Origin: Octopus sinensis
Taxonomy: Eukaryota
Length of the DNA: 64,000 nt
Direction of reading: 5' to 3'
Assembly (NCBI RefSeq): GCF_006345805.1
Contig: NC_043003.1
Span: 18,910,001-18,974,000 of the forward strand
A program made the position numbers and the translations under genes. The notes under the pieces were generated by a model. The model was not told the origin of the DNA and made no database searches. It saw only the letters and a program-made list of their open reading frames with translations. Below are positions 13,322 to 57,553 of this stretch, piece after piece (position 1 is the stretch's first letter; each line of letters opens with the position of its first letter).

Positions 13322-15612
13322 ATTAAGAATTGTATATTCAAATGTTTTGTGTATATTTTAGAAATATAACCAGTTTATTGTGCACAAATGTTAACAAAAT
13401 CTTTTATTGGACCCTAGTTGAGAACCACTGATATAAAGAATGGTAGGATTTTTATTGGAGACTTTCTGTTTTTCTCCACTGGTGCCTGCTTGATGCTTTC
13501 TTAGCCACCAGTAAACCAGTTTATGGCTTTACTATTAGCTGTGAGCCAAATATAATTTATCTGCCCTCTGGTGATACAATCTTAGATTAGAAGGTTCAAT
13601 CTCTCCCCACCCCTCCACTTACCCTCTTTATTATCTCTAATCCTTTTTCCTCTCTCTCATTACTTCTCTTAATTCTCTTTCACCTTCTCCATCATTACTA
13701 CTCTTTCTCATTCACTCACTCTCACATCTCTGCTTCATCTGTGTTGTATCTCCCTTGGCTGCTATTTGTTTTGTTTTGTTTTTTTATTATTCCAAGAAGT
13801 AAAAAAAAAAAAACACTCCAGTTCCTTCTTTCTTTCTGTCTTTTTTCTTGTATACTATCTCATTTACTGAACTCCCCTCTGCAACATCAGTTATCTTAAC
13901 AGGCTAACCTTTCTTATCTGTTCTCAAAATTCCTGATGGTTTTATTTTTCATGGTTGGGCTATATGAATAGAACTGGTACCTGCAGTAGATGATATTTCG
14001 GGGCTGGGTATGAGATAGTTATTTAGGTTGTTTGAATTCATTCAACTTGAAGCTTAGTAGTTTGCACTAGTGACCTATAGAGTATTTCCTTTCTTACCTT
14101 ACTACCTAACAGGCCTTCATCAGGTGCTTGAGTGACTTAAAAACTAGTATCACTGACACAATATCACAAAATTTGAGAGAGGATCAGTTTTTTGTTTTGT
14201 TTTCTTTCATTTTCTCGAGCTTGGTTTCCATGACATATAAGTGACTGAGATCACAACATTCACCCTGAACAGGGTGCCAGTTTGTTACAGGGCTCAAAGC
14301 CAACAATTCTTAAGGAAAGGGACAAGTCTAGTACATCTACCCCAGTAGCTAAGCAGGGAATTTTATTTTATCAACCCCGGTGGGATGAAAAGCATAGCTG
14401 ACTTTGGTTGGGGTTGAGCTCAAAGCATAAAGAGCCAGAAAAAATGTCGCTAATGATTCTACCAACTCACCTCCTAAATGTGAACGGATTACATCAGTCC
14501 CAGTATTTGAAAGCTACTTTTATCGACCCTTGGAGTGTAAAGAGTAAAGTTGGCTCTAGCTGGATTTAAACTCAGAATGTGACTGGCTTCCGTGACTGGC
14601 TTCCATGTCGGTGGCACGTAAAAAACACCATCCGAATCGTGGCCGAAGCCAGTGCCGCCTTGACTGGCTTCCATGCAGGTGGCACGTAAAATGCACCAAT
14701 CCGACCGTGGCCGTTGCCAGCCTCGCCTGGCACCAGTGCAGGTGGCACGTAAAAAGCACCCACTACACTCACGGAGTGGTTGGCGTTAGGAAGGGCATCC
14801 AGCTGTAGAAACATTGCCAGATAAGACCGGAGTGGTGCAGCCTTCTGGCTTCCCAGATCCCCGGTCGAACCGTCCAACCCATGCTAGCATGGAGAACGGA
14901 CGTTAAGCGATGACGATGATGATGAATGTAAAGAGATGCCACTAGCACTTTACTGATTCTGCTATTCCACTGCCCTAATAATGATATTAGTTTCAAACTT
15001 TGGTACGAGGCCAGCAGTTTCGGGGAGGGTTTAAATTGATTACATCAACCCCCAGAACTCGGAATGTAAAGGGCTGTCATTAGCACTCTACTGATTCTGC
15101 TGGTCCACTGCCCTAATAATGTCAATATTAGTTTCAAACTTTGGCACTTATTTTTATCGATCCCAAAAGGATGAATGAAAGGCAAAGTCAACCCTGGTGG
15201 AATTTGAACTCAGAACATAAAAACGGACGAAATGCCACAAAAGCATTTTGCCTCCTAAAACTTAAGAATGTGTAACTTGGTAATAAGACCAACTACATTT
15301 TCATTTGTTTCTTTTTCCGAACATGTTTACAAATTTTTCAATGAATAATTAACACCAGAGTGAAACGATGTTTATGAAATTTCATGAGAAGGAAATAAAT
15401 AAATGGGAAAGCATAATTGAAACCAGGAAAACAGAAGAAACAGACAAGCAAACTTAGTAATTAAAAATAATGGAATATTTTTTTTAAAAAATGTATTTTT
15501 AGTTTTAGTAATAATGAGTTATATGAATTTACTAAACCATCAACACATACTATGTAGGGTTTTATTGAGGGAAGAATACATGTGTAGGCGAAAACTATTC
15601 AGCTAATTTAAA

Positions 15613-16750: not shown

Positions 16751-18408
16751 ACACAAAATAAGCTTTGAATTTGTAAAGGAGGTGAAGCATTAGCTGTGTA
16801 TTTGTGGCATTCATGTATTTCTCAAAATCAGCAACAGATCTATGTGATATGTATACATCTTGGAGTTGAAACTAAATCACAGATTCTTCTCCAATACTCA
16901 CCACTAATTCTCTGATGCTCACCAATGTAATCTTATTGCATGTTATTATGCTGTGGTTAATTCATGGATCATATAAAATATATGTAATCATAACATTTGA
17001 ATTAGATCAAATATGAGAGCAATTAATTTGGGTTGGTTTTTTTTTTAGTTTGTGTTTTAATCTTTGGATTTGTTTTAATTATTGTTGCTTACTTTCAGGA
17101 TGGGGAAATATTTACAGTTGGTTTCAGTCTAATGTTTTAGGAGCCTCGTCTGGCCCCTGTGCTGGTGGCACGTAAAAAGCACCATCCGATCGTGACCGTT
17201 TGCCAGCCTCATCTGGCACCTGTGCAGGTGGCACGTAAAAAGCACCCACTACACTCACGGAGTGGTTGACATTAGGAAGGGCATCCAGCTGTAGAAACAC
17301 TGCCAGATCAGACTGGAGTCTGGCGCAGCCTTCTGGCTTCCCAGACCCCAGTTGAACCATCCAACCCATGCTAGGTTAAACGATGATGATGATGATTCAG
17401 ATTACTCTGTCAAATATAATGCTTATTTATTCACATTGTTTTGAACTGATCATGCATTAACTTGTAACTTTGAAATTTCAAAGCTGTGCTTGTTCAATTT
17501 TAGAATGACACTGCTGGGTAGGTGTAAAAGGCTGGACTGTAGCCAGTTTGAACACAAAATGGTTAGAATATTCAGGCCAGATGTGGTCAGTTTAAATTCT
17601 GAAGGATTAAACATCTTGATTTTTGACTTAATATTTGAGGATTTGAATAAAGTACTTGTGTCACTTGGAGTTGTTCTCTTGAAATAGATACCTGTTTATT
17701 TATTCTTGATCCATTTCCATTTATTGGGAATGTTTTAATCTTGTTTGGTTTTTATTATATATTTATTTTTATTTTTCCTCTCAAAACTAAATATTCAACT
17801 TTGTATTTGCTGGGTTTATTAATCCATTGCTGTTGGTTTGTTGTTGATGTGACACCTAATGTATATTGATTGTCAAATCATACTAACCAATGAGGTCAGT
17901 TCCATAATTCCTGAAATCCATTATTACATAATGATCTGCTGCCAATCTTGAGAAATACAAAACCTGTTTGATGCATCTCTCACCAAAGAATTTATATTTA
18001 CTTTGTCTAGGCTCCTAATAACATATGAGAAGAAGTGTAATCTTCCCCACTTTGTTTATTATTTTCTTTTGCAACTAAAGAAATGGTAAAATTTCTATCA
18101 AGAGTACAAATTTCATCTATAATTTTCAAGTCGCAAACTTGTCTTTATATGCAATTTGAATAATTAAGAATTTTGTTTACCTAAACTGAGAGACTCATGA
18201 AAGGTATTGGTTATTCAGATTGAGTTGATGAGACAACACAAGATTTAAGTGCCAAGACAGGCTGTGGTGCTGATCCTTTCAACTCTTACTTGCTGGGAGT
18301 AAAATAGTTCTGTATGTTATTTGGTGCAGGGTCTTTGAGATGTCATATACTGATCGCAACTGGAGACAAAAATGGAAAATCTTATTTATATATAATAATA
18401 ATAATAAT

Positions 18409-18839
18409 AATAATCCTTGAATGGAATTTATAAACATTTAATGCATTGCTATGTGCACTTCCACAAATCACATGATTCTTAAGATCTCTATTTATATTCC
18501 TGGGATGAATGGTGTAGTCTGTTGTAGCCATGGGCATCTGGTTCACCATCATCTTTGATTCATTCTTTCAGGCGATATGCCATTAGCGGATGTACCACTG
18601 AGGGATGTTTATCCCATTTTTACCTGTAAAAAGGGATAAACATCCCTCTGTGGTACATCCGCTAATGGTATATCACCTGAAGAAATGAATCAATGATGAT
18701 GGTCAACCAGATGCCCATGGCTACAACAGACTACACCATTCATCCCAGGAATATAGATTGTGATCTTAAGAATCATGTGATTTATGGAAGCGTACATAGC
18801 AATGGATTAAATGCTTATAAATTCCATTCAAGGATTATT
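18409..18839. repeat. Fold-back inverted repeat, ~210-bp arms, tiny loop
   Basis: aataatccttgaatggaatttataa.. pairs with ..ttataaattccattcaaggattatt; centre ttttac-ct-gtaaaa at ~18624. Confidence 0.92.
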
Positions 18840-20824
18840 GCTGTTATTCTATCTATCCTACATTATCTTGTGCCGGTAGCATGTGAAAAAACATTCGAGC
18901 AAGGTCGTTGCCTGTGTCGCTGGACTGGCTCCTGTGCAGGTGGCACGTAAAAAACACCATTTGAGTGTGGCAGTTGCCAGTACCACCTGACTGGCCCTCA
19001 TGCCGGTGGCATGTAAAAGCACCCACTACACTCTCGGAGTGGTTGGCATTAGGAAGGGCATCCAGCTGTAGAAACTCTGCCAGATCAGATTGAAGCCTGA
19101 TACAGCCATCTGGTTCACCAGTCCTCAGTCAAATCGTCCAACCCATGCTAGCATGGAAAGCGGACGTTAAACAACGATGATGATGATGATTATAGTGGGA
19201 CAACTTCATGCAACCCTGAAAAACTAGCTCACTAGTCGACATCATTAGACAGTGGTTGGCATAATAAAATGGAGCTTTATCTGCATATTCAAAACGTTTC
19301 CCATGAACAAATTTAAATGATATATATCATCATCATCATCATCGTTTAACGATATATATATATATATATATATATATGATACAATTAGCAAAAGAATGAT
19401 ATGACATGTTGGGGAAACTGGCGGCCGATAGGTGTCATTGAACGAAGAGCAAATGCCAATTTGTGAATATCAAATTAGGATGCTTATCTATAAATTAGCT
19501 AGACTAAATTAAACAGCTTTTTTTTTTTTTTTTTTCACTTCACTGAAATTAAAATGAAAAATCCTTGTCTGTGGTTGTTATATATCACCATTTTGTCATT
19601 GAAATAAAATCAATGTTCTGTTTGATTTAACATTTCAAAATGAAGTAATGAAATTCTCTGTTAAATGTATAGTAAATTCTGACATCTAAATAACAGATTA
19701 TAGTTTTTGAATACTTTATATACAAAAAACACTAAACAGAACAGGTTTTTAATTGTATTTACTCTTCTCATTACTTTGAAAATATTGTGTACACAACACA
19801 CATGGCTACTACACCCATCTCTTTTCAGGAATACATACTTTTAACATGCTAACTTTTGCAAACACAACCGTTTTTTTCTGACACCTACATTCAGGTATAT
19901 ATATTCACATACACCTGCCTTGTAACATAGACAAAAGTATGTCAAAATATATTTATAAAATTCTTGATTTATAAAATGTGTAATGATAGCATCAAAACTA
20001 CCAATACTATGTTCACTTACCTAAGATACACTTTTTTGGAACTGTTTTATCTATTTCTTTCCTTGAAGTCTTATCTCTGACTATCTGCAAGAGATGGCCT
20101 GGATTTAGGCAGTTTTGTATATGTTTGTGTCTGTGTGTTTTATGTATGTATGTATGTATGTGTGTATCTCCAGATATATATGCATATATCAAATCAAGTG
20201 TGTGTGTGTGTGTGCATACTTCTGAGTACGTGGGTGTATACATATAAATAAATGGATGCATGTATGTACATATGTATTTACCTGATACCCTGCCTTTGAT
20301 AACACTCAGCTGGAGTATTATTTTGTTGTGAGACCAAAACCTCCCATTCTTTTCTCATGAGAAATGGCTGAATACTTTTTACAAAATATTTAGTGAAATT
20401 CACCGGCTGCTAACTTACCAAATGTTCTCAAAATTAATACTTATTTTCTTCCCCCTTTTTCCTTTTACTCTTCTATTAACTGAATTAGATTGACAGGGTA
20501 AAGAAGTTGGGATAGAAACTCTATCAGAGTGGGTAGTTAGGTAATTATGCATAACAATGCTGCAGTAGCTATAGATCTCTGAGTATATAAGTTTAGTTTG
20601 GGATTTTGGATGCAGGAGCATCATGAATTACTAGAAAGTTAGAGATTTTAACTAGAGAGAGACTTGCATGAGACAGAAGACTTACAGGCGACTGGTGATA
20701 ATGGACCAAGTAGAGAAAGTGGTACAAAGAATAAAGTATAGCAAACTTTTAGTACAAGACAGTTACATTGAATTGGACCCAAAGCTAACATATTTCTAAA
20801 GAGATAGGCGTAAGAGTGGCTGTA

Positions 20825-35540: not shown

Positions 35541-37078
35541 TATATATTATATATAAATATATCTTGTTAGAATTTTTATTAGTTTTTAATACTTGACAAT
35601 CAATGAAATATATAACATTTGATGGGGTTGTGAAAAATACAAGTAATACTATCTACCTGAAAATAGAAATGAAATGAGAGCATAGCCTCTGCAAGATTAT
35701 TCCGTTGATGAACCTATTAATTTCGATTTGAAATTGTGTGCGTCTAAACCTTTTCAAGGGAAGCAACTTTTACTTCTCAAATGCAGAAATTACATTGCAA
35801 TTTTCATTTAGATATTTCACACCACGAAGATTTATCGTCAGCACTTTAATATAATAAATTTGTGAATGAAAGCATCATTAATGACAAGGTTCCATTTGAT
35901 CAATTATTGCTTTGCTGCATTTCTGACAAGGGAGTTACTGTAACTCAATACAAAGGACATCTTTCAAAGAACATTGCCCTTTCACTGATGTTTACATTCC
36001 TTTACCAGTATTACATCAGTGAAAGCTACACATAGGCACACACACACACACACACTCATTTATTCATTCAACATCCATTTTCCATGCTAGCACAGGTTGA
36101 AAAGGGACCTATTTGCTGCAAGATTTCATGGCTAAATGCTCTTTCTGTTGGCAACATTTGTGTTTCGCATGTAAGGAATTTTTCATTCCATAAGTCTTTG
36201 AAAGTGTAAAGCAGTCAGTCACAAGGAACCATCATCATTTTAATGTCCATTTTTCCATACTTGCATGGGTCAGACAGATGCCCTTCCCGTTTCCAAGCAA
36301 GGTATTTTTTTCACATAGCCAGACATATTTTCATGGAAGACTGGAAACAAACAACCCCACTTGTATGACAATGATACTCATTTACGGCGTTCAGATGATG
36401 ACTTGACATGGGTAAAGCACCATTCAAGCATGGTCAATGCCAGTGCCGCCTGACTGGCCCTCGTACCGGTGGCTTATAAAAAGCACCCACTACACTCTGA
36501 GTGGTTGGCATTAGGAAGGGCATCCAGCTGTAGAAACCTTGCCAGATCAGATTGGAGCCTGGTGCAGCCTTATGGCTTGCCAGTCCTCAGTCAAACCGTC
36601 CAGCCCATACCAGCATGAAAAGCAGACTTTAAACGATGATGATGATGATGAGAGAGATAGATTGCGATGAGCTTCTTTCAGTTTCTGTCTATCAAATCCA
36701 TTCGTAAGGCTTTTGTTGGCCTGGAGCTATTCTAGAAGACACAACAGGCACACAAAAATGCCGAAAACAATCTCAAGATACACAGAACTCTATGAAATGG
36801 TTACAGTCCAGGTACTACAGAACAGAAAATGTTATTTGTACATGCACTTTAATACATAATTTTAAAAACTAGATACTCAACTGATACTCCAGGAATTTTA
36901 AATGTACTTTTTAGAGATTTCAAATGTTGCCATAGGAGATGCTAATTCCTTCCATCTGGCTTCATATGGCAGTAATAACATTGGTAAACCTTTGTCAGCA
37001 GATTTCTACAAATTTACTCTCTCATTTTTATTTTTATTTTTTGAAATATTTCTTTATTTTTTTCTTTCTTTTTTTCAG

Positions 37079-37664
37079 GCATTGTTATGACTTGACTCTG
37101 CTTCCAAGGAATCTGATGCCTTTTAATTTGGAATGTATCCATGGACTTCGAGCTCGAGTTATACGGTCACTTCATCATGCATATCCACCTCTCTTGAACA
37201 AGACCATCAAATTCTCTGTAGATGATATTCCAAACCAACTTGAAGGGCAACGATGCATTCTTTTCTGGCAAACTCAAATGGCTGACAATCAAAGCTGGAA
37301 TTTCTACTTTAAGTTCAAAAGGGACTCTACATTCTCGAACAAACTAAGCCATTCTCGTAAACGCAATGATTTCTTGAATGGCTATGATGACATGTTTCAC
37401 AACCCTGAAAAAGATTGTACAGTACTTTTAGTAACTTGTAAGAACTATTCCTTTGTTCCTGTTGTCATGGGCTATGTACTAAACAAACTAAGTGTAGCGG
37501 TCAGCCAGACAATGCGCTATCATAGGATGAAACTTAGTTTCAATACTCGTTTTTTTAATAACAGCAATTCTTCAGGAGGTCCCGGAGAAGAAATGATCGT
37601 CTTAGATCCTGTGATGAGCTGGCAGTGTATGGGATGGTGGCATCGTAATTATCCCAGTGTGTGA
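37079..37664 (+). CDS. TMEM183A: TMEM183-family last coding exon
   Basis: T-rich cag acceptor, phase 2 (AG+G=Arg); LRARVIRSL, WNFYFKFK, NPEKDC, VMG, MRYHR, VLDPV, WWHRNYP match the TMEM183 C-terminal half; TGA ends at 37664. Confidence 0.96.
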
Positions 37665-42669: not shown

Positions 42670-43167
42670 CTCTATGGCTGGATTCCTAGGCATAACCAAC
42701 TGACACTGTGAATATTATCCAGTCACTTTGTTCTTGGTCAACCTCTAAGTCTGCTGTTGGTTGGCTTGACTTTAACAATCTGTTTTGTGATTATCACCTG
42801 CAATATTCTAATTGCACGTCCATAGTACCAGAGCTGTAACTTCTTCATTCGGAGAAGTAGCTATGAACTCTTTAACTATTCTCAATTTGTGCCTATATTA
42901 AATTATTGACAAATATAACTCTTCCTGAATCGCATAATTGGAATTTTTAAAGAGTTGTTTTGTTTTTAGAAATTTAAGCATAATAATCAAAAATATTAAT
43001 ATTTAGTTCCTAACATGGTTATGGCTGTGTGGTAAGTTTGCTTTCCAACCACATGATTCCAGTTTTAGTCTCATTGCGTGACACCGTAAGCAAGTGTCTT
43101 TTACTATAGTCTTGGGCTGAACAAAACTTTGTGAGTGAATTTGGTAGTCAGAAACTGAAAGATGCCC

Positions 43168-43169
43168 TA

Positions 43170-43242
<73 letters not shown>

Positions 43243-43379
43243 TATATTATATCATATATATATATATATAATATATATATACATATATATATATATTAAT
43301 ATATATACATATATATATATAGATATATATATATATACATTATATATATATAATATATATATATATACATATATATTAT

Positions 43380-43449
<70 letters not shown>

Positions 43450-43463
43450 CATACATACATATA
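43168..43463. repeat. (TA)n tract
   Basis: Directly visible; a further pure (TA)n lies at 43799-43864. Confidence 0.95.
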
Positions 43464-43794
43464 TACATTATATAAAAGGGCTTAGTAAAATAAATTACTT
43501 TGCCGCATACTGAACTCATTAGAAATAGCAGCTAAAAACTTTTTTAAGGCTATTTCTAATACTTAAAGAAAATCTCTCTCATATATATGAGAGAGATTTT
43601 CTTTAAGTATTAAAATAGCCTTAAAAAAGTTTTTTAGCTGCTATTTCTAATGAGTTCAGTATGCGGCAAAGTAATTTATTTTACTAAGCCCTTTATATAA
43701 TGTAATAATTTGAATTCGCCTTGAATGGTCCCTTTGCATACTGAACACTTGGTGAAATTGATTAATAATTAATTAATTTTGCCCTCAATTGTTG

Positions 43795-43800
<6 letters not shown>
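43464..43800 (+). mobile_element. Truncated fold-back relative of the 51790-52743 element
   Basis: 43464-43704 is a near-perfect palindrome; 43679-43800 matches the terminal direct repeat of the 52-kb element; (TA)n on both sides. Confidence 0.85.
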
Positions 43801-43862
<62 letters not shown>

Positions 43863-43866
<4 letters not shown>

Positions 43867-44266
43867 CGTAGAAGTGGCTGTGTGGTAAGTAGCTTGCTTA
43901 TGAACCACATGGTTCCAGGTTCAGTCCCACTGCGTGGCACCTTGGCCAAGTGTCTTCTACTATAGCCTCAAGCCGACCAAAGCCTTGTGAGTGGATTTGG
44001 TAGATGGAAACTGAAAAAAGCCCATCATATATATGTATATATATATATCTGTGTGTGTATACATTTGTGTGTCTGTTTGTTCCCCCAACATTGCTTGACA
44101 ACCAATGCTGGTTTGTTTACATCCCCATAACTTAGCGGTTCAGCAAAAGAGACCGATAGAATATGTACTAGGCTTACAAAGAATAAGTCCTGGGGTCGAT
44201 TTGCTCAACTAAAGGTGGTGCTCCAGCATGGCCGCAGTCAAATGACTGAAACAAGTAAAAGAGCAA
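43863..44266 (+). mobile_element. SINE family A
   Basis: Full consensus. Confidence 0.9.
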
Positions 44267-45489
44267 AATACCCTAAACACCAAGCCATGCGCCTCCACTG
44301 TAGAAGTATTACCAGTTTATTGCACATAATTTTTAACCACAAAATCTTATGGACCCACAAGGGTCTCATCAATCGAGAACCACAGGACTAAACCTTTCAA
44401 AGCAGTACCCTGGCATGGCTGCAGTCCAATGACTGAAACCTGTAAAAACAAAATGAAAAAGAAATATAGACAGAAGAGTTCATTAAAAACACTTTTTTTA
44501 AAAATGCATTCTGGTTCTTTGGTTTTCTTGGTAATTAAGACTTACATAGTATATAAAGATGTATAAATATATTTATTAAGCGTAGTATAGCTAATAATGA
44601 AGCTAATGACACCAATGTTCTTTTAATGAGATTTTCATTTTAACGATAAGTGATGAGAAAATAGAACCTGATAAAAATTGACTGACAATGATAATGCTGA
44701 GTATGTTAAGAAGAAAAGAGCAAATAATGAAGAACATCAAGTGAAAGATAGATGATGACAGTAATACTAACACTGACAGTATGGATGACGATTATGATGA
44801 TAATAAATTATAATAAGGCTTAATTAGATAATGATAGCTATAAAATTTTGTTATTTTTATTGTCAGAGGTAATAGCTTTTTAACTATGGCAACTATGTTG
44901 ATTATGATGAATCTGTTAAAAAGTAATTTAGTAATTGTAAAAAAGGAAATTTAAAAAAAAATTATTATTATCCTGATTATTTCAGGTGGCTAATTGTTTC
45001 AGGAAAATTCCATAATAATAATAATAATAATAATAATTTCAAAACCATATCAACTTATTTGACAAATTTAAAAATATATTTTTTTTCCTTTTTAAAAATT
45101 TTTTGTTGGTAATTAAATTGGTTTAATTCGTTTAATGATCTCTCTGTTCCCCACTCTCACCCCATTCCACATTCTTCATTGTTCAATATTTTAAAGGTCA
45201 TCCTTGTTTTTTTTGTTTTGTTTTTTCTTTCTTTCATATAAGCACAACACTTTCAGAGTTATCATTGGATTGAAAGATGGATAGGCCTGTCTAATAGTTC
45301 ATTGATTTCTGCTTTTTTGTATTTATATACATACGTATGTATATGTATATACATGCTTATTGTATGTGATTGCAAAGTCATACATACAGGTTGAATGCAG
45401 TCAGTATTACGCATTTATTAAAAGACAAAAACTTGAAAAAAAATTCACTATATGCATTTTTTTATGCATGTATATATATATGGAGGCGC

Positions 45490-45831
45490 CTACCTCAGTA
45501 AAGCTGGACTCAAGAGTTATCTTCGTAATCATAAAACGAGACAGATGAGTGACAACCTGGCCACTGGTGGTGGTGTAACACACCATACTAATCATATCTG
45601 TCGGGCATGTGGAAGAGAGTATAATTCGACAGGAGGACTTAAACGACATGCAAAGGTACATGAAGTCCAGTTACAACTACAGCCGACTATTACCAGTAAA
45701 GGTTTTAGTTGCCAATTCTGTACAAGACATTGTAGATCCTTAGCTGGGCTAAAACGTCACATTCGATCGCAGCACCAGTAACAGTTAAGCTTCGTGCAAT
45801 GGCCATACTCGATAACGTGGGGGCAGCCATA
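45490..45831 (+). mobile_element. 5'-truncated LINE (RTE-like) 3' end encoding C2H2 zinc fingers
   Basis: Open frame with one partial and two complete C2H2 fingers (CRAC..HAKVH, CQFC..HIRSQH*), ~50-nt 3' UTR, 12-bp TSD atatggaggcgc (45478-45489, 45832-45843). Confidence 0.8.
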
Positions 45832-50194: not shown

Positions 50195-50760
50195 ATCACC
50201 CAACCAGATGCAGTCATTGTACACTACCTTTGTTCACCCAACTATGAACAGTTCTTATTTCTGCATTGTCACTGTTCACCCAACTATGGACAGTCCTTAA
50301 TTCTACATTGTCACTGTTCATCCAACTATGAACAGTCCATAATATACATTACCTCTAATCACCCAACCATGAACAGTTCTTAATTCTACATTGTCACTGT
50401 TCACCCAACTATGAACAGTCCTTAATTCTACATTACACCTGTTCACCCAACCATGAACAGTCCTTAATTCTACATTGTTACTCTTCACCCAATTATGGAC
50501 TGTCCTAAATTCTACATTGTTACTGTTCACCCAACTATGAACAGTCTTCAATTCTACATTGCCTCTGTTCATCCAACTATGGACAGTACATAATTCTACA
50601 TTGTCTCTGTTGACCAAGCTGTGAACAATTCTAAATTCTATATTACTTTAATTCACCCAGCTACCAATAACTTTCATCAATACCATTACCTCAACTGACC
50701 CATCAATGGACAGCTCTTAATTCTGTATTGCTTCAGTCAACCCAACTGTGAACAATCCTG
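50195..50760. repeat. 42-bp minisatellite, ~13 units
   Basis: Unit tcacccaactatgaacagtccttaattctacattgtcactgt; 14-aa periodicity in the ORF track. Confidence 0.92.
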
Positions 50761-51789
50761 ATTCTTAAATTCATTTGTGGTGAAATGTCTTTAACATGCT
50801 AACCACCACATATACCACTGGTTGTTCATCACGAACTTCACGCAAGTGCCATATGCACCATCTGTGATACATTTTCATAATTTGATAAAATATTTTATTC
50901 AGTATCTTTTACATGGTTTTGAGGAATATTTTAAATAACATGAGTGCTAAATATTAAAGTTTAATTATAAAACATTGTAAAAATGCAAAATTATATCTCC
51001 TTGCAATTATGCAGTATGCAGTGTGATTGGAAATGCATAGTGGCTCTAGTATGTTCCAGTAACAGGTCATGGCAGTTAACGTGTTAATTCTACATTAAGG
51101 AATTTTTCAACAAAACTGATGGCTTTCCCCTCATTGATCAGGGCAGTCACAGAAAACTAAATTGCTGAAAGGATGGCCTAATGTATTCACTGTTTGTTAT
51201 ATAAAACATAAAAATAAGAGCAGTTAAAATTTTGTACACTGTTTGATAGAAATAGTGGAGGTGCATGGCTTAGTGGTAAGGGTGTCAGCATCATGATCGT
51301 AAGATTGTAGTTTCAATTCCTGGACTGGGCAACTCGTTGTGTTCTTGAGCAAAACACTTCATTTCACTTTGCTCCAGTCAACTCAGCTGGCAAAAATGAG
51401 TAACACTGTGATGGATTAGCATCCCATCCAGCTGGGGAACACATACGCCATTGAAACCGGGAAACTGGGCCCATGAGCCTGGCTAGGCTTTAAAAGGATA
51501 CATTTTTTTTTTTTGATAGAAATACCAGATGTGGATTAATGTCACTAATATCAAAAGTTGACACAAGAAGTTTTGGTTTGTGGGATATGTTGCATTGGAC
51601 ACATGCACAGTTGTGTGGTTAAGAAGCTCATTTTGCAACCATGTGCTTTCTGGTTCAGTCCTACTGCATGGTACCTTAGCCAGTTGTCTTCTACTATAGC
51701 CCCAGGTCAACTAATGCCCAGTGAGGGAATTTGGTAGATGGAAAGTGTCTGGAAGCCTACTGTATGTATGTGTATATATATATATATAT

Positions 51790-52741
51790 ATTGTATAAAA
51801 GGGCTTAGTAAAATAAATTACTTTGCCACATACTGAACTCATTAGAAATAGCAGCCAAAAAAAGATTTTTTAGCCATTTCTAATACTTAAAGAAAATTTC
51901 TCTCAGATAGTGTTTACTCAAAATAACCCACGAAGGTATGGGGGTAAAAACATTAAAAAATCACAAGTGCAAAGATTATTTGAGAACGTACGTTTCTAGA
52001 TCAGCCAAATACAATTCGACATTTCTTTTGTCAGCCCAAAATTTCTTAATTCGGATTTTTTACTAAGCCCTTTTATACAATGTAATATTTTGAATTCGCC
52101 TTAAATGGTCCCTTTACATACTGAATACTTGGTGAAATTGATTAATAGCTAATTCATTTTACCCTCAATTGTTGAAATTATAATTCATTTCTCTCTGTTT
52201 AATGCCTCGGTTTTCACCGATAAAATATGGTGTTTACTAGTCTGACCCACGTGGGTGGAAGGGGGAGAGCAGGAATTTTTCGCTTGCATATTTTGAATTT
52301 GTTGGCACTGTTAGTTTGAACGGATCTTCTGAGGTGAAAAGTCGCCAAAAGGGTATGCTCCTACTTTCAGTGTTTCCAAATCCGAATTAAGAAATTTTGG
52401 GCTGACGAAAGAAATGTTGAATTGTATTTGGCTGATCTAGAAACGTACGTTCTCAAATAATCTTTGCACTTGTGATTTTTTAATGTTTTTACCCCCATAC
52501 CTTCGTGGGTTATTTTGAGTAAACACTATCTGAGAGAAATTTTCTTTAAGTATTAGAAATGGCTAAAAAATCTTTTTTTGGCTGCTATTTCTAATGAGTT
52601 CAGTATGTGGCAAAGTAATTTATTTTACTAAGCCCTTTTATACAATGTAATATTTTGAATTTGCCTTAAATGGTCCCTTTACATACTGAATACTTGGTGA
52701 AATTGATTAATAGCTAATTAATTTTACCCTCAATTGTTGAA

Positions 52742-52743
<2 letters not shown>
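51790..52743 (+). mobile_element. Non-coding Penelope-like/retrozyme-like element with inverted 5' copy and terminal direct repeat
   Basis: 51790-52056 is the reverse complement of 52380-52646; 52058-52178 is directly repeated at 52623-52743; (TA)n on both sides; contains a hammerhead motif. Confidence 0.75.
52396..52457 (+). ncRNA. Type I hammerhead ribozyme candidate
   Basis: Stem I TTTGGG/CTCAAA, core CTGACGA (52402-52408), stem II AGA/TCT, GAAA (52440-52443), stem III AC-gtac-GT, cleavage triplet GTT (cut after 52451). Confidence 0.65.
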
Positions 52744-52774
<31 letters not shown>

Positions 52775-53296
52775 ATATATCATCATCATCATCATTTAAC
52801 GTCCGCTTTCCATGCTAGCATGGTTTGGACAATTTGACTGAGGACTGGCGAACCAGATGGCTGCACAAGGCTCCAATCTTCTCCCATATTCACTCTTTTG
52901 ATCATGTTGCTTTCAATGAAAATATATAACAAAAAATAGGGTAGAGATGACTGTTACATCTTATTGGAGACAAGGGACCCTCTAGTATGGGTGCCACAAT
53001 AAAATGTTTCTATCACACTCAATAGAAAAACAGACGACATAGATTAGAGAGAACTCTTTAGTTCTCTATACAATGGTCAAAACAACCTCTCTTGCACTGA
53101 TGCATGAAGAAGGGCATCCAGCCATAGAAACCATGTCAGAAAGTAGTGTGTATGAGCAAAAACATTGATTGGTTTCCCAACTCACCTATGAAGGTAGTAC
53201 CTTCAAATAAGATCTCACTCAGATAGTGATGACCTGTGTAATGCATGCTAGCAGGGAAAAATAGATGCAAAATGATATTTGGTGGTTGTGGAGAAG

Positions 53297-55475: not shown

Positions 55476-57553
55476 TATTTTATCAAATTAGCCATGGAGA
55501 CCTTACACTTACATAAAAATCAACAAGTCAATCAAACATAAAAAATACACTATCACTTTTCCCTTCCTCCTCTTTCCGGACCTCCAGTCAAATATCTAGC
55601 TGCCTGTAGAGCAGACCACGTTGACAGCTGGGGAGTTCAGAAAGAAAGCGAAGTGCCTATTATCAAATGTTTGTGTCACACAGTGCCACAATTTATAACT
55701 CACCCTCAAAATAACTTGTGCCCGCATCCTCTGCCATCCTCCACGCCTCTTTCAAAGCCGAATCGAGTTCCGTGTCAGCATTGCCCAGGTACAAGCGATA
55801 TTCCTCATTGAGCCCCTTCAGCCCAAACGTCACGTCAAACGTTATGGCCTCCACAGCTATCTGAGAAGGCTATTCGGGGTCCTGTGTGAAGGCTAAAGGT
55901 GCTCCCTTATGGTGCTTTTCCATCTCCTTTTCAATTTCTCCGCCTTTATAGAAGAAGATCAATACATCATCTTCCTCTGGGGGCGGGATACCCAATTATT
56001 TCATTGGTGGCACAGTTCCCACCAACGGTGTTTCTTCTCCTGCCAGTAGCACAACCCCAACCGACGTTATTCCGGGACATTCCGGTACTATGTCCCGTTT
56101 CTCTTCCTCTTCCTCTTTTTTTCTTTTCAACAGAGGGAGGGTGCGTCTCCTCCGTGGCCGGAAGATTCGCCTTCATTCCTCATCCCTAGGATCATTCGGT
56201 GAGCACCCATTGTTGCTCACCTTCTTCCTCTTACGGCCCCTGTTTGAGGAGTCCTCTGCTTCCTCGGCCGCCTTCATTCCCTCTTCTACAGGGGTCTCAC
56301 TCAACTGCTCCGGGACCTTATTTTGTTCCCGGGGACAGTTTTTCTTTATATGGCCAGACTCCAGGCACCGATGACACCTGGGGGGGAAACCCTCAAGTAT
56401 CACTGGGTACCTGCACCCAGCCATTTAAAAAAAATCTGGAAAAACCAGATTGGCTGATTGGGTCCAAAGGGTCAAAACAGCTTTTGACCCAACCCAATCA
56501 GCCACAGGAAGAACTTTCACATTAAGAAGCTTGGTCCCGCTGCCACCCAGACCCCGGCGGATAGTCTCCTCTATCCACTTGGGTTTTATCCCGGGTGGCA
56601 ACCCGCAGACCTAAGCTTTCATCAACCTCTTTCCATAATACATGGGAAGGAACAAAATTTCCTCACCCTCCAAGGGTTGACTAGCAAATTTGTGAGCCTC
56701 TTCAGGGGTATCAAATAGCAACCAAACCGTTGCATATCTGAAACCCCTGGAAATTAATTTAATTGTTGGCAAATACTCTGCCAACTTCTTTTCAATTGCC
56801 GTCTTTTCGAATAGGGCGATGGTGTTGAGTGACTTGGAGTAGGTTCTCAACACCACTGTCCTATCTTCATGGTCTTTCAACCACTTTTTAGGCGGTATAA
56901 TCTCCCACTCCAAAATTTTGTCTTTTTTCATTGCCATGTTTCTTTTTTTTTTTTTTGAAATATATTCAAAATAAAACTTAAAAAGCGAGAAGAAAAAAGA
57001 AATCAAAAGAAAGTCACAATAAACAAAAAGGAGAAAGTCAAATAAAGTTTAGAAGAAAGTCAATAGCTCAGGAACACAGCAAAAAAATCTTCCGGCCATT
57101 TGGTACTCCCGGCCTAGGTTGAACCCGGAATGCCACAACTGGAACACAACTTCCACAAAAATTGATATACAAATTGTTCAATCTTCGGAGGCAAAACACT
57201 CCCCCAAACAGCAGTTCTCACAATTATTAAAGTTCTTCAAAAGGCACAATACAAGCAATAATTCTCATAATTAAGTGAGAAAAACATAAACCGAAGACGA
57301 ATACATCCCCAAACAAAAATTCTCACAATTCAGTGAGAAAAATTATTTGCCCCATGTCGGCAGAACTAGAATTCTGAATCCAGTAGGACTTCCTGCCTGT
57401 ACAAAAACAATTCTCAACAAAAATTCCCACTGGACCCAAAAAACAGAATCTTACCTTACAATGGAGCTTCAAAATTTTTCAATTCGAGACGGCTTCAAAA
57501 GCATATCTCACCTCTTTGGTGCCGAACACCACAATTATTCGCACATACGCAGT
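55476..57553 (-). mobile_element. ~2.1-kb ORF1-only non-LTR element (Tx1/L1-like ORF1)
   Basis: 15-bp TSD (55461-55475, 57554-57568), ~615-nt 5' UTR, single disrupted ORF, ~215-nt 3' UTR ending AATAAA; no EN or RT sequence seen. Confidence 0.8.
55693..56937 (-). pseudogene. Disrupted gag-like ORF1: RRM-like N-terminus, CCHC knuckle, unknown C-terminal domain
   Basis: MAMKKDK..VWLLFDTPEEA..*VCGLPPGI.., CHRCLESGHIKKNC (56335-56376); in-frame stops at ~56612, ~56426 and ~55871, plus frameshifts between 56180 and 55990. Confidence 0.8.

Follow-up and report, generated by a model that had tools for sequence, protein, structure and literature searches.

The window, a stretch of 64,000 nt of octopus DNA in which all coordinates given here are positions, carries two insertions of a short repeat family, the larger of which (copy 1, 51790-52743) contains a hammerhead motif. 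A long coding exon of TMEM183 lies at 36936-37664 (plus strand); it has no Pfam match, and its frame at 37059-37661 is 99% identical to TMEM183 of Octopus vulgaris and 79% identical to that of Argonauta hians. These identities place the source of the window in O. vulgaris or in a species very near to it. A C2H2 zinc-finger frame (45437-45778, plus strand; Pfam, E 5e-8) is located between the two insertions, and broken minus-strand frames with a C-rich knuckle and no Pfam match, similar in appearance to a retrotransposon ORF1 of the L1 type, extend over 55700-57500. Of 54 segments tested, 56401-56767 has the strongest self-pairing (z -9.1), and short inverted repeats occur near 56415-56610. A 42-nt minisatellite of 9.9 copies (50231-50644) is found ~1.1 kb upstream of copy 1. 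Both insertions sit in TA tracts adjoining abundant host repeats, which have several copies in the window (51612-51747, 43021-43165, 43865-44050, 52781-52882) and which resemble octopus SINE-type repeats; insertion may therefore have taken place in the microsatellite tails of these repeats. An unrelated palindrome at 18400-18848 has 221-nt arms, 91% complementary, a 7-nt spacer and a short AT-rich tract on its left side only. A scan with a relaxed descriptor found no hammerhead there, and the palindrome could be another foldback insertion of the Penelope-like element (PLE) type or a MITE.

Architecture of the insertion

Copy 1 lies between a left (TA)n target tract (51768-51789), at the tail of a common host repeat, and a right one (52744-52780), and consists of an inverted arm of 269-272 nt followed by a forward piece of 686 nt, the latter made up of a 565-nt unit and a 121-nt repeat. 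The inverted arm (51790-52058, minus strand) is a 5'-truncated reverse complement of 52378-52646/9. The forward piece opens with a partial upstream copy of 121 nt (52058-52178, plus strand) and continues into the non-coding unit (52179-52743, plus strand), which has 34% GC and is strongly self-paired. When aligned, the inverted arms (51787-52058 and 52378-52649) show three differences in 272 nt, and the direct repeat (52058-52178 and 52623-52743) two differences in 121 nt at a spacing of 565 nt, a partial tandem of pseudo-LTR-like form. These alignments confirm the initial annotation, which had described a monomer of ~565 bp with a repeat of ~120 bp at its end and an inverted copy, all inside (TA)n. 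The outermost 3 nt of the arm could equally belong to the (TA)n tract, the start at 51790 being right, and inverted arm and forward piece are joined via a 1-nt T overlap at 52058. Target-site duplications are unreadable inside (TA)n.

Two end points can be placed in the unit. The inverted arm ends at 52646-52649, the first end point and putative start site 1 of reverse transcription (RT), which is situated in a predicted open loop closed by the helix 52598-52608 : 52681-52691. The forward piece alone continues through a tail of 94-97 nt (52647-52743, plus strand) to the second end point, 52743, a putative RT start site 2. The low number of internal differences, five in 393 nt, suggests that the insertion is recent. 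Three of the five are CpG transitions (52407, 52418 and 52097/52662), the change that CpG decay produces. One of them accounts for the mutated hammerhead core CTGACAA that had been noted in the inverted arm and is indeed present there (G8>A at 52029). Because three of the five differences are CpG transitions, we regard CTGACAA as ordinary decay, and the loss of G8 was rejected as a sign of selection.

Coding capacity and search for a partner element

The longest stop-to-stop frame inside the element has 52 aa, and no protein relatives were found for two of its frames (49 and 40 aa), a weak search with such short queries; the element thus appears non-coding, as first proposed. Comparison of the element with phage records by blastn gave no match, and a bacterial promoter scan is uninformative for animal DNA. 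Across the window, after low-complexity frames had been filtered out, none of 192 non-repetitive frames of at least 65 aa matched an RT or GIY-YIG family in Pfam. The linked RT and GIY-YIG reading frame for which a search had been proposed was thus not found in the window, and none was recognised among the published Octopus consensus ends of Hydra and Naiad elements. Octopus does have hammerhead-bearing, (TA)n-targeting PLEs such as Hydra-1_Obim, according to the accessible text of PMC8557442. The ends of Hydra-1_Obim, Naiad_Obim and Naiad_Ovul show no resemblance to the unit by eye, which is a weak comparison. Five short motifs looked for in the available part of the PMC8557442 supplement gave no match in two cases and a single match in unrelated text in three. 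An 11-nt word common to the unit and the 5' end of Hydra-1_Obim was rejected as being at chance level by a rough estimate.

A second insertion with the same footprint

A blastn comparison of the element with the window revealed a second copy at ~43465-43799 (plus strand), composed of an inverted arm (~43465-43584) and a forward arm (~43585-43799). Both arms begin at the same element position, giving a near-perfect palindrome with an ATAT centre, and the copy lacks the hammerhead through 5' truncation. Long TA-rich tracts flank it on both sides (43168-43474 and 43799-43864). Copy 2 differs from copy 1 by 19 substitutions in 208 aligned nt (~9%), and of the six substitutions seen in the inverted arm of copy 2, five are found again in the forward arm, indicating that the two insertions were made from different source templates.

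In both insertions, the inverted arm ends at the position of 52646-52649 and the forward arm at that of 52743, so the end points lie 94-97 nt apart and leave a one-sided tail. All four insertion ends are bordered by TA-rich tracts, in a window where (TA) tracts of at least 6 units occupy 1362 of 64,000 nt. The 5' truncation points differ between the copies, as do the arm lengths (~270 nt in copy 1 vs 110-120 nt in copy 2). According to the accessible text of PMC8557442, PLE insertions combine fixed 3' with variable 5' ends, are targeted to microsatellites or (TA)n, and show a tail, a partial tandem and an inverted 5'-truncated copy. With identical end points, an inverted 5' arm and a (TA)n target in a second copy, PLE-type mobilisation is now supported more strongly than the initial annotation could support it. 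The interval 52179-52526 is covered by one copy only, and one insertion alone shows the 565-nt unit and the hammerhead.

The hammerhead motif and its published relatives

At 52396-52457 (plus strand), a type I hammerhead motif can be drawn with predicted cleavage after U52451. Its stem I (52396-52401 : 52452-52457) has six pairs, one of them G.U, and its core consists of CUGACGA (52402-52408) and GAAA (52440-52443), every position of which is intact in the forward copy. In hammerhead position numbering, N16.2-U16.1-H17 is GUU (52449-52451). Helix III is a perfect palindrome, ACGUACGU (52443-52450), and is suited to a dimer. Stem II comprises three pairs, a 3x3 internal loop and seven pairs, is rich in G.U, and has an A.A opposition (52409/52439) at its base; being long and interrupted, it does not fit the 'minimal' hammerhead that had been suggested.

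In 200 dinucleotide shuffles of the 64 kb, scanned with a descriptor written after the motif had been seen, the core with a stem I of at least four pairs and a palindromic helix III did not occur (0/200). A six-pair stem I together with a three-pair stem II occurred once (1/200), and a six-pair stem I alone eight times (8/200). With a relaxed descriptor on both strands of the window, 52396-52457 is the only site, in agreement with the motif first drawn there, and only two near-identical versions of it exist within the window. The word CUGAUGA at 14123 (minus strand), which begins a PLE-like helix II, was rejected as it has no valid rest of a hammerhead. The covariance-model search proposed in the initial annotation gave no hammerhead match in Rfam, either for the whole window at the gathering score or for the element at E up to 10, and the Rfam matches obtained for element and window were chance ones to AT-rich families. 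The G10.1-C11.1 pair that closes helix II in the consensus of PMC4209133, as far as its available text goes, is missing here and replaced by A.A, making for a poorer consensus fit that is compatible with the class, 15 of 25 Hydra motifs being without the pair too.

Published motifs soften part of this picture. Counted from the accessible portion of PMC8557442 File S2, with one antisense duplicate row and the Chlamys rows left out, 10 of 25 Hydra-clade hammerheads have U17, including that of Hydra-1 of Octopus bimaculoides, and 15 of the 25 have a mismatch flanking helix II (14 U.U, one U.C and no A.A). U17 likewise occurs in 24 of the 56 PLE-type rows and in all three mollusc rows of PMC4209133 Fig. 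S3, in the form available. In the same figure, the Drosophila willistoni row appears like the octopus motif, with a mismatch, AGA:UCU and a 4-nt palindromic loop, and one row, by count that of Cotesia, has an extra A before GAAA that is a possible A.A case, tentatively so given that the columns are not kept in this version. An axolotl hammerhead with U.U at the base of helix II is described in the available source as cleaving. The two caveats attached to the motif at the outset, U17 and the mismatch at the base of stem II, therefore weaken, both being common in PLE hammerheads, but the A.A opposition itself has no counterpart among the 25 Hydra motifs.

The predicted energetics do not favour the active fold. 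In isolation it has -2.2 kcal/mol vs -6.6 kcal/mol for the preferred fold, and forcing it in the unit has a predicted cost of 4.5 kcal/mol. Stem I has a probability of 0.56 on its own, which falls to 0.17 within the unit and to 0.0 within the full insertion, in which the hammerhead is paired with the inverted arm; copy 1 would thus likely be disabled when transcribed through as a whole. The inverted arm has C at the position of 52418, which creates a C-G pair and raises the predicted probability of helix II from 0.02 to 0.35. A double hammerhead sharing an 8-pair helix III is predicted at -19.0 kcal/mol vs -13.2 kcal/mol for two monomers; another dimer fold (-22.6 kcal/mol) lies 3.6 kcal/mol below it. 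Dimeric variants of PLE hammerheads are reportedly the subject of a paper by Lunse et al. from 2017.

Predicted structure of the 565-nt unit

Folded as a circle, the unit reaches -154.1 kcal/mol vs -116.5 +/- 6.2 kcal/mol for 100 shuffles (z -6.1). As a linear molecule, the strand carrying the hammerhead has a z of -6.9 vs -3.2 for the other strand (25 shuffles). Ranked by self-pairing, the 5' domain of the unit is fourth among 54 segments of 367 nt, and two of the three segments with a lower z are (TA)n tracts. The dominant predicted feature is a rod in which 52187-52265 pairs with 52492-52540 (plus strand; helix probabilities 0.83-0.98), enclosing the hammerhead domain and starting 8 nt from the 5' end of the unit; its alignment support is modest, the score being reached by 11 of 500 shuffles. 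Downstream, three further helices are predicted between 52551 and 52728 (plus strand; 52551-52596, 52598-52608 : 52681-52691, and 52696-52728), and rod and 3' helices together have probabilities of 0.83-0.99. A 6-pair hairpin across the unit junction (52167-52185) was rejected as evidence for a circle, its predicted probability being 0.17.

Copy 2 preserves the three 3' helices, its compatible changes being one double and three single ones. Twelve of the 19 substitutions in that copy fall at unpaired positions, five keep a pair, one breaks a pair and one has its partner outside the alignment. A naive null, which overstates the case, produced this outcome in 117 of 20,000 runs; with a stricter one, in which mutated copies were refolded, 52 of 1000 runs did so for each of two starts, a marginal result. 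The double change (U-A to C-G) was rejected as proof of selection, a single double-compensatory change occurring in 313-323 of 1000 null runs. Selection on the structure of the unit is suggested by these comparisons with a predicted fold. At 52245-52256, a palindrome of 12 nt is built around CACGTG, with a G-rich run after it; the palindrome coincides with one strand of the predicted rod and is a possible internal promoter. Two Octopus Naiad consensus 5' ends, in the portion of the supplement available, carry a CACGTG or near-CACGTG word, which may be chance.

Discussion

We think it probable that the octopus repeat, which has no reading frame and whose two (TA)n insertions share the same end points and have head-to-head arms, is a non-autonomous unit copied in trans by the reverse transcriptase-endonuclease of a PLE. 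As a plausible mechanism, the unit RNA would be bound by the PLE protein via its 3' structured domain, and the GIY-YIG endonuclease would nick both strands of a (TA)n tract. Each nick would then prime RT from a fixed position inside the unit, either 52646-9 or 52743, and the two cDNAs, stopping at variable points, would be joined there to give inverted arm, forward arm and tail. The 1-nt T overlap in copy 1 and the self-complementary ATAT centre in copy 2 would represent these joints. In copy 1, the forward cDNA would have run 121 nt past one unit on a tandem or circular template or after a template jump, three possibilities that one locus is unable to separate. The hammerhead, with its palindromic helix III predicted to work as a dimer, would release monomers from multimeric transcripts by cleavage after U52451, if weakly and either as a dimer or assisted by protein.

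Nicking, dual priming and cDNA joining are carried over by analogy from the Poseidon element PAc of the lizard Anolis carolinensis (Frangieh et al. 2024, PMC11167929). In the accessible text of that study, PAc, which favours AT-rich DNA, acts on both target strands by cleavage and extension, and its RT begins in vitro at two internal sites that define the tail; no explanation for inverted copies is given in it. The octopus repeat resembles PAc in having two fixed end points downstream of a hammerhead and an AT-rich target. However, as that text describes it, PAc is an autonomous element with a tail of 30-40 nt, and its two sites are found within the ORF, in an AC-rich stem-loop.

Among known elements, the EN+ PLEs, and the Hydra clade in particular, come nearest to the repeat in the style of the hammerhead and in target (Craig et al. 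2021, PMC8557442, as far as available). The likeness extends to (TA)n targets, the inverted 5'-truncated copy, the partial tandem and the tail at one end, and to a type I hammerhead in which helix III is nearly palindromic and U17 and a flanking mismatch of helix II are frequent. In contrast to these elements, the octopus unit has no RT or GIY-YIG frame, its tail is 94-97 nt vs the 30-40 nt described for PLEs in the same source, its hammerhead is 195-292 nt from the end points, and it has A.A where the Hydra motifs listed have U.U. Neptune and Naiad elements likewise favour microsatellites, according to the same text. The non-autonomous Chlamys PLEs (such as MRC1 of Chlamydomonas), also treated in PMC8557442, are comparable in being non-coding dependants with pseudo-LTRs and head-to-tail copies; unlike the octopus repeat, they belong to a green alga and are mostly described there as lacking hammerheads. 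They have 3' sequence in common with a known autonomous family, for which no counterpart was seen among the Octopus consensus ends compared.

Metazoan non-LTR retrozymes offer the other comparison. In the available text of PMC7229834 and bioRxiv 10.64898/2026.07.22.740005 they are, like the octopus unit, non-coding, below 45% GC, self-paired, furnished with a type I hammerhead and inserted at more than unit length. The length of the octopus unit falls within the 51-972 bp range of the retrozyme survey (Li et al. 2026, bioRxiv 10.64898/2026.07.22.740005, main text), and exceeds the 170-400 nt of those retrozyme circles that have been measured in the sources available. Its hammerhead is of PLE style rather than canonical as in retrozymes, and the texts searched describe no retrozyme with an inverted arm, a pair of fixed end points or (TA)n as target. 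Retrozymes are recognised in the text of the bioRxiv survey by at least two hammerhead-bearing units in tandem. Copy 1, with 1.2 units and one intact sense hammerhead, has no such tandem, and the retrozyme membership proposed in the initial annotation is unsupported at this locus. The 121-nt overrun is explained equally well by a tandem transcript as by circular RNA. We hold as rather doubtful an elaboration in which the 565-nt unit exists as a circular, viroid-like RNA. In it, the dimer-dependent hammerhead of the unit would do both the cutting and the closing, and a PLE enzyme would copy the circle on both (TA)n strands from two fixed starts.

The hammerhead may also be vestigial or dependent on protein, with no part in spreading, which would be compatible with copying of the unit in trans by a PLE and is a serious possibility, if a less than even one. 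A.A in place of G10.1-C11.1, an interrupted G.U-rich helix II and the preference for inactive folds all fit such a reading. So does the PAc hammerhead, which cleaves only with protein and whose mutants insert normally in vitro (PMC11167929, accessible text), and so do the Xenopus retrozyme dimers, of which one of nine tested cleaved and eight did not (bioRxiv 10.64898/2026.07.22.740005, text). Copy 2, too, was inserted without the motif, though by 5' truncation. However, the core of the forward copy is wholly intact, U17 is found in 24 of 56 PLE-type and 10 of 25 Hydra motifs in the material available from PMC4209133 and PMC8557442, the axolotl motif with U.U is described as cleaving, and the C at the 52418 position in the inverted arm improves helix II to the extent given above.

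The main rival, a real but clearly less likely possibility, is that the repeat is instead the non-coding 3' end of an autonomous PLE, a 5'-truncated piece of 565 nt with a long 3' UTR. The 121 nt would then have arisen when the reverse transcriptase jumped to a new RNA and began again at its usual start site. All the evidence from the PLE layout fits this explanation equally, and the 565-nt period is seen once. Most genomic PLE hammerheads are single motifs of truncated elements (PMC4209133, available text), and Naiad_Ovul has a long non-coding 3' end (PMC8557442, accessible supplement). By eye, the coding frame of hammerhead-bearing Hydra elements in the same material ends ~100-400 nt before the hammerhead, so the 217 nt present here are compatible with a PLE 3' end. 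TATA at 52179-52182, directly behind the 121-nt repeat, may be left over from the target. Against this, 565 nt contain no coding remnant, and the rod near the 5' end of the unit closes a self-contained domain, which suits a complete unit over a random stop.

Foldback, MITE and DIRS-type elements typically have long inverted arms and insert in TA, and the internal complementary region of DIRS is the complement of its joined ends. A DNA-level element of one of these kinds inserting in TA, with a chance hammerhead look-alike, would fit such arms and targets, the near-perfect palindrome of copy 2 and the further 221-nt palindrome at 18400-18848, but is very improbable and largely refuted: the arms differ in length between copies and are not terminal, a tail of 94-97 nt follows the right arm in both, the internal 121-nt copy is direct rather than a DIRS internal complementary region, the fold is strand-biased, and the hammerhead descriptor was matched in 0 of 200 shuffles.

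The class to which a PLE-mobilised octopus repeat would belong is already known, since PLE hammerheads, inverted pseudo-LTRs, non-autonomous PLEs and the proposed dependence of animal retrozymes on PLEs are all in print. The octopus family is unusual in its tail length, its helix II and its rod. No description of it turned up in the literature searched, and Repbase or Dfam may hold it as an unclassified repeat; octopus, cephalopods and molluscs are unmentioned in the text of bioRxiv 10.64898/2026.07.22.740005, whose supplements list families of 35 species. PLEs have been named the likely mobiliser of retrozymes (Cervera and de la Pena 2020, PMC7229834, accessible text), and the text of bioRxiv 10.64898/2026.07.22.740005 argues that animal retrozymes derive from PLE pseudo-LTRs. 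There the link rests on co-occurrence in vertebrates and pseudo-LTR homology in Xenopus. The octopus family joins a non-coding, self-paired hammerhead RNA with PLE insertion footprints. If the unit is complete and circular, it would become testable which enzyme copies animal retrozymes and how the inverted copies of PLEs arise. Should the circular-RNA reading be true, the insertions would be direct genomic footprints of PLE-mobilised circles of the retrozyme type, and the octopus unit would provide a small, protein-free substrate for studying the inverted arms and tails of PLEs.
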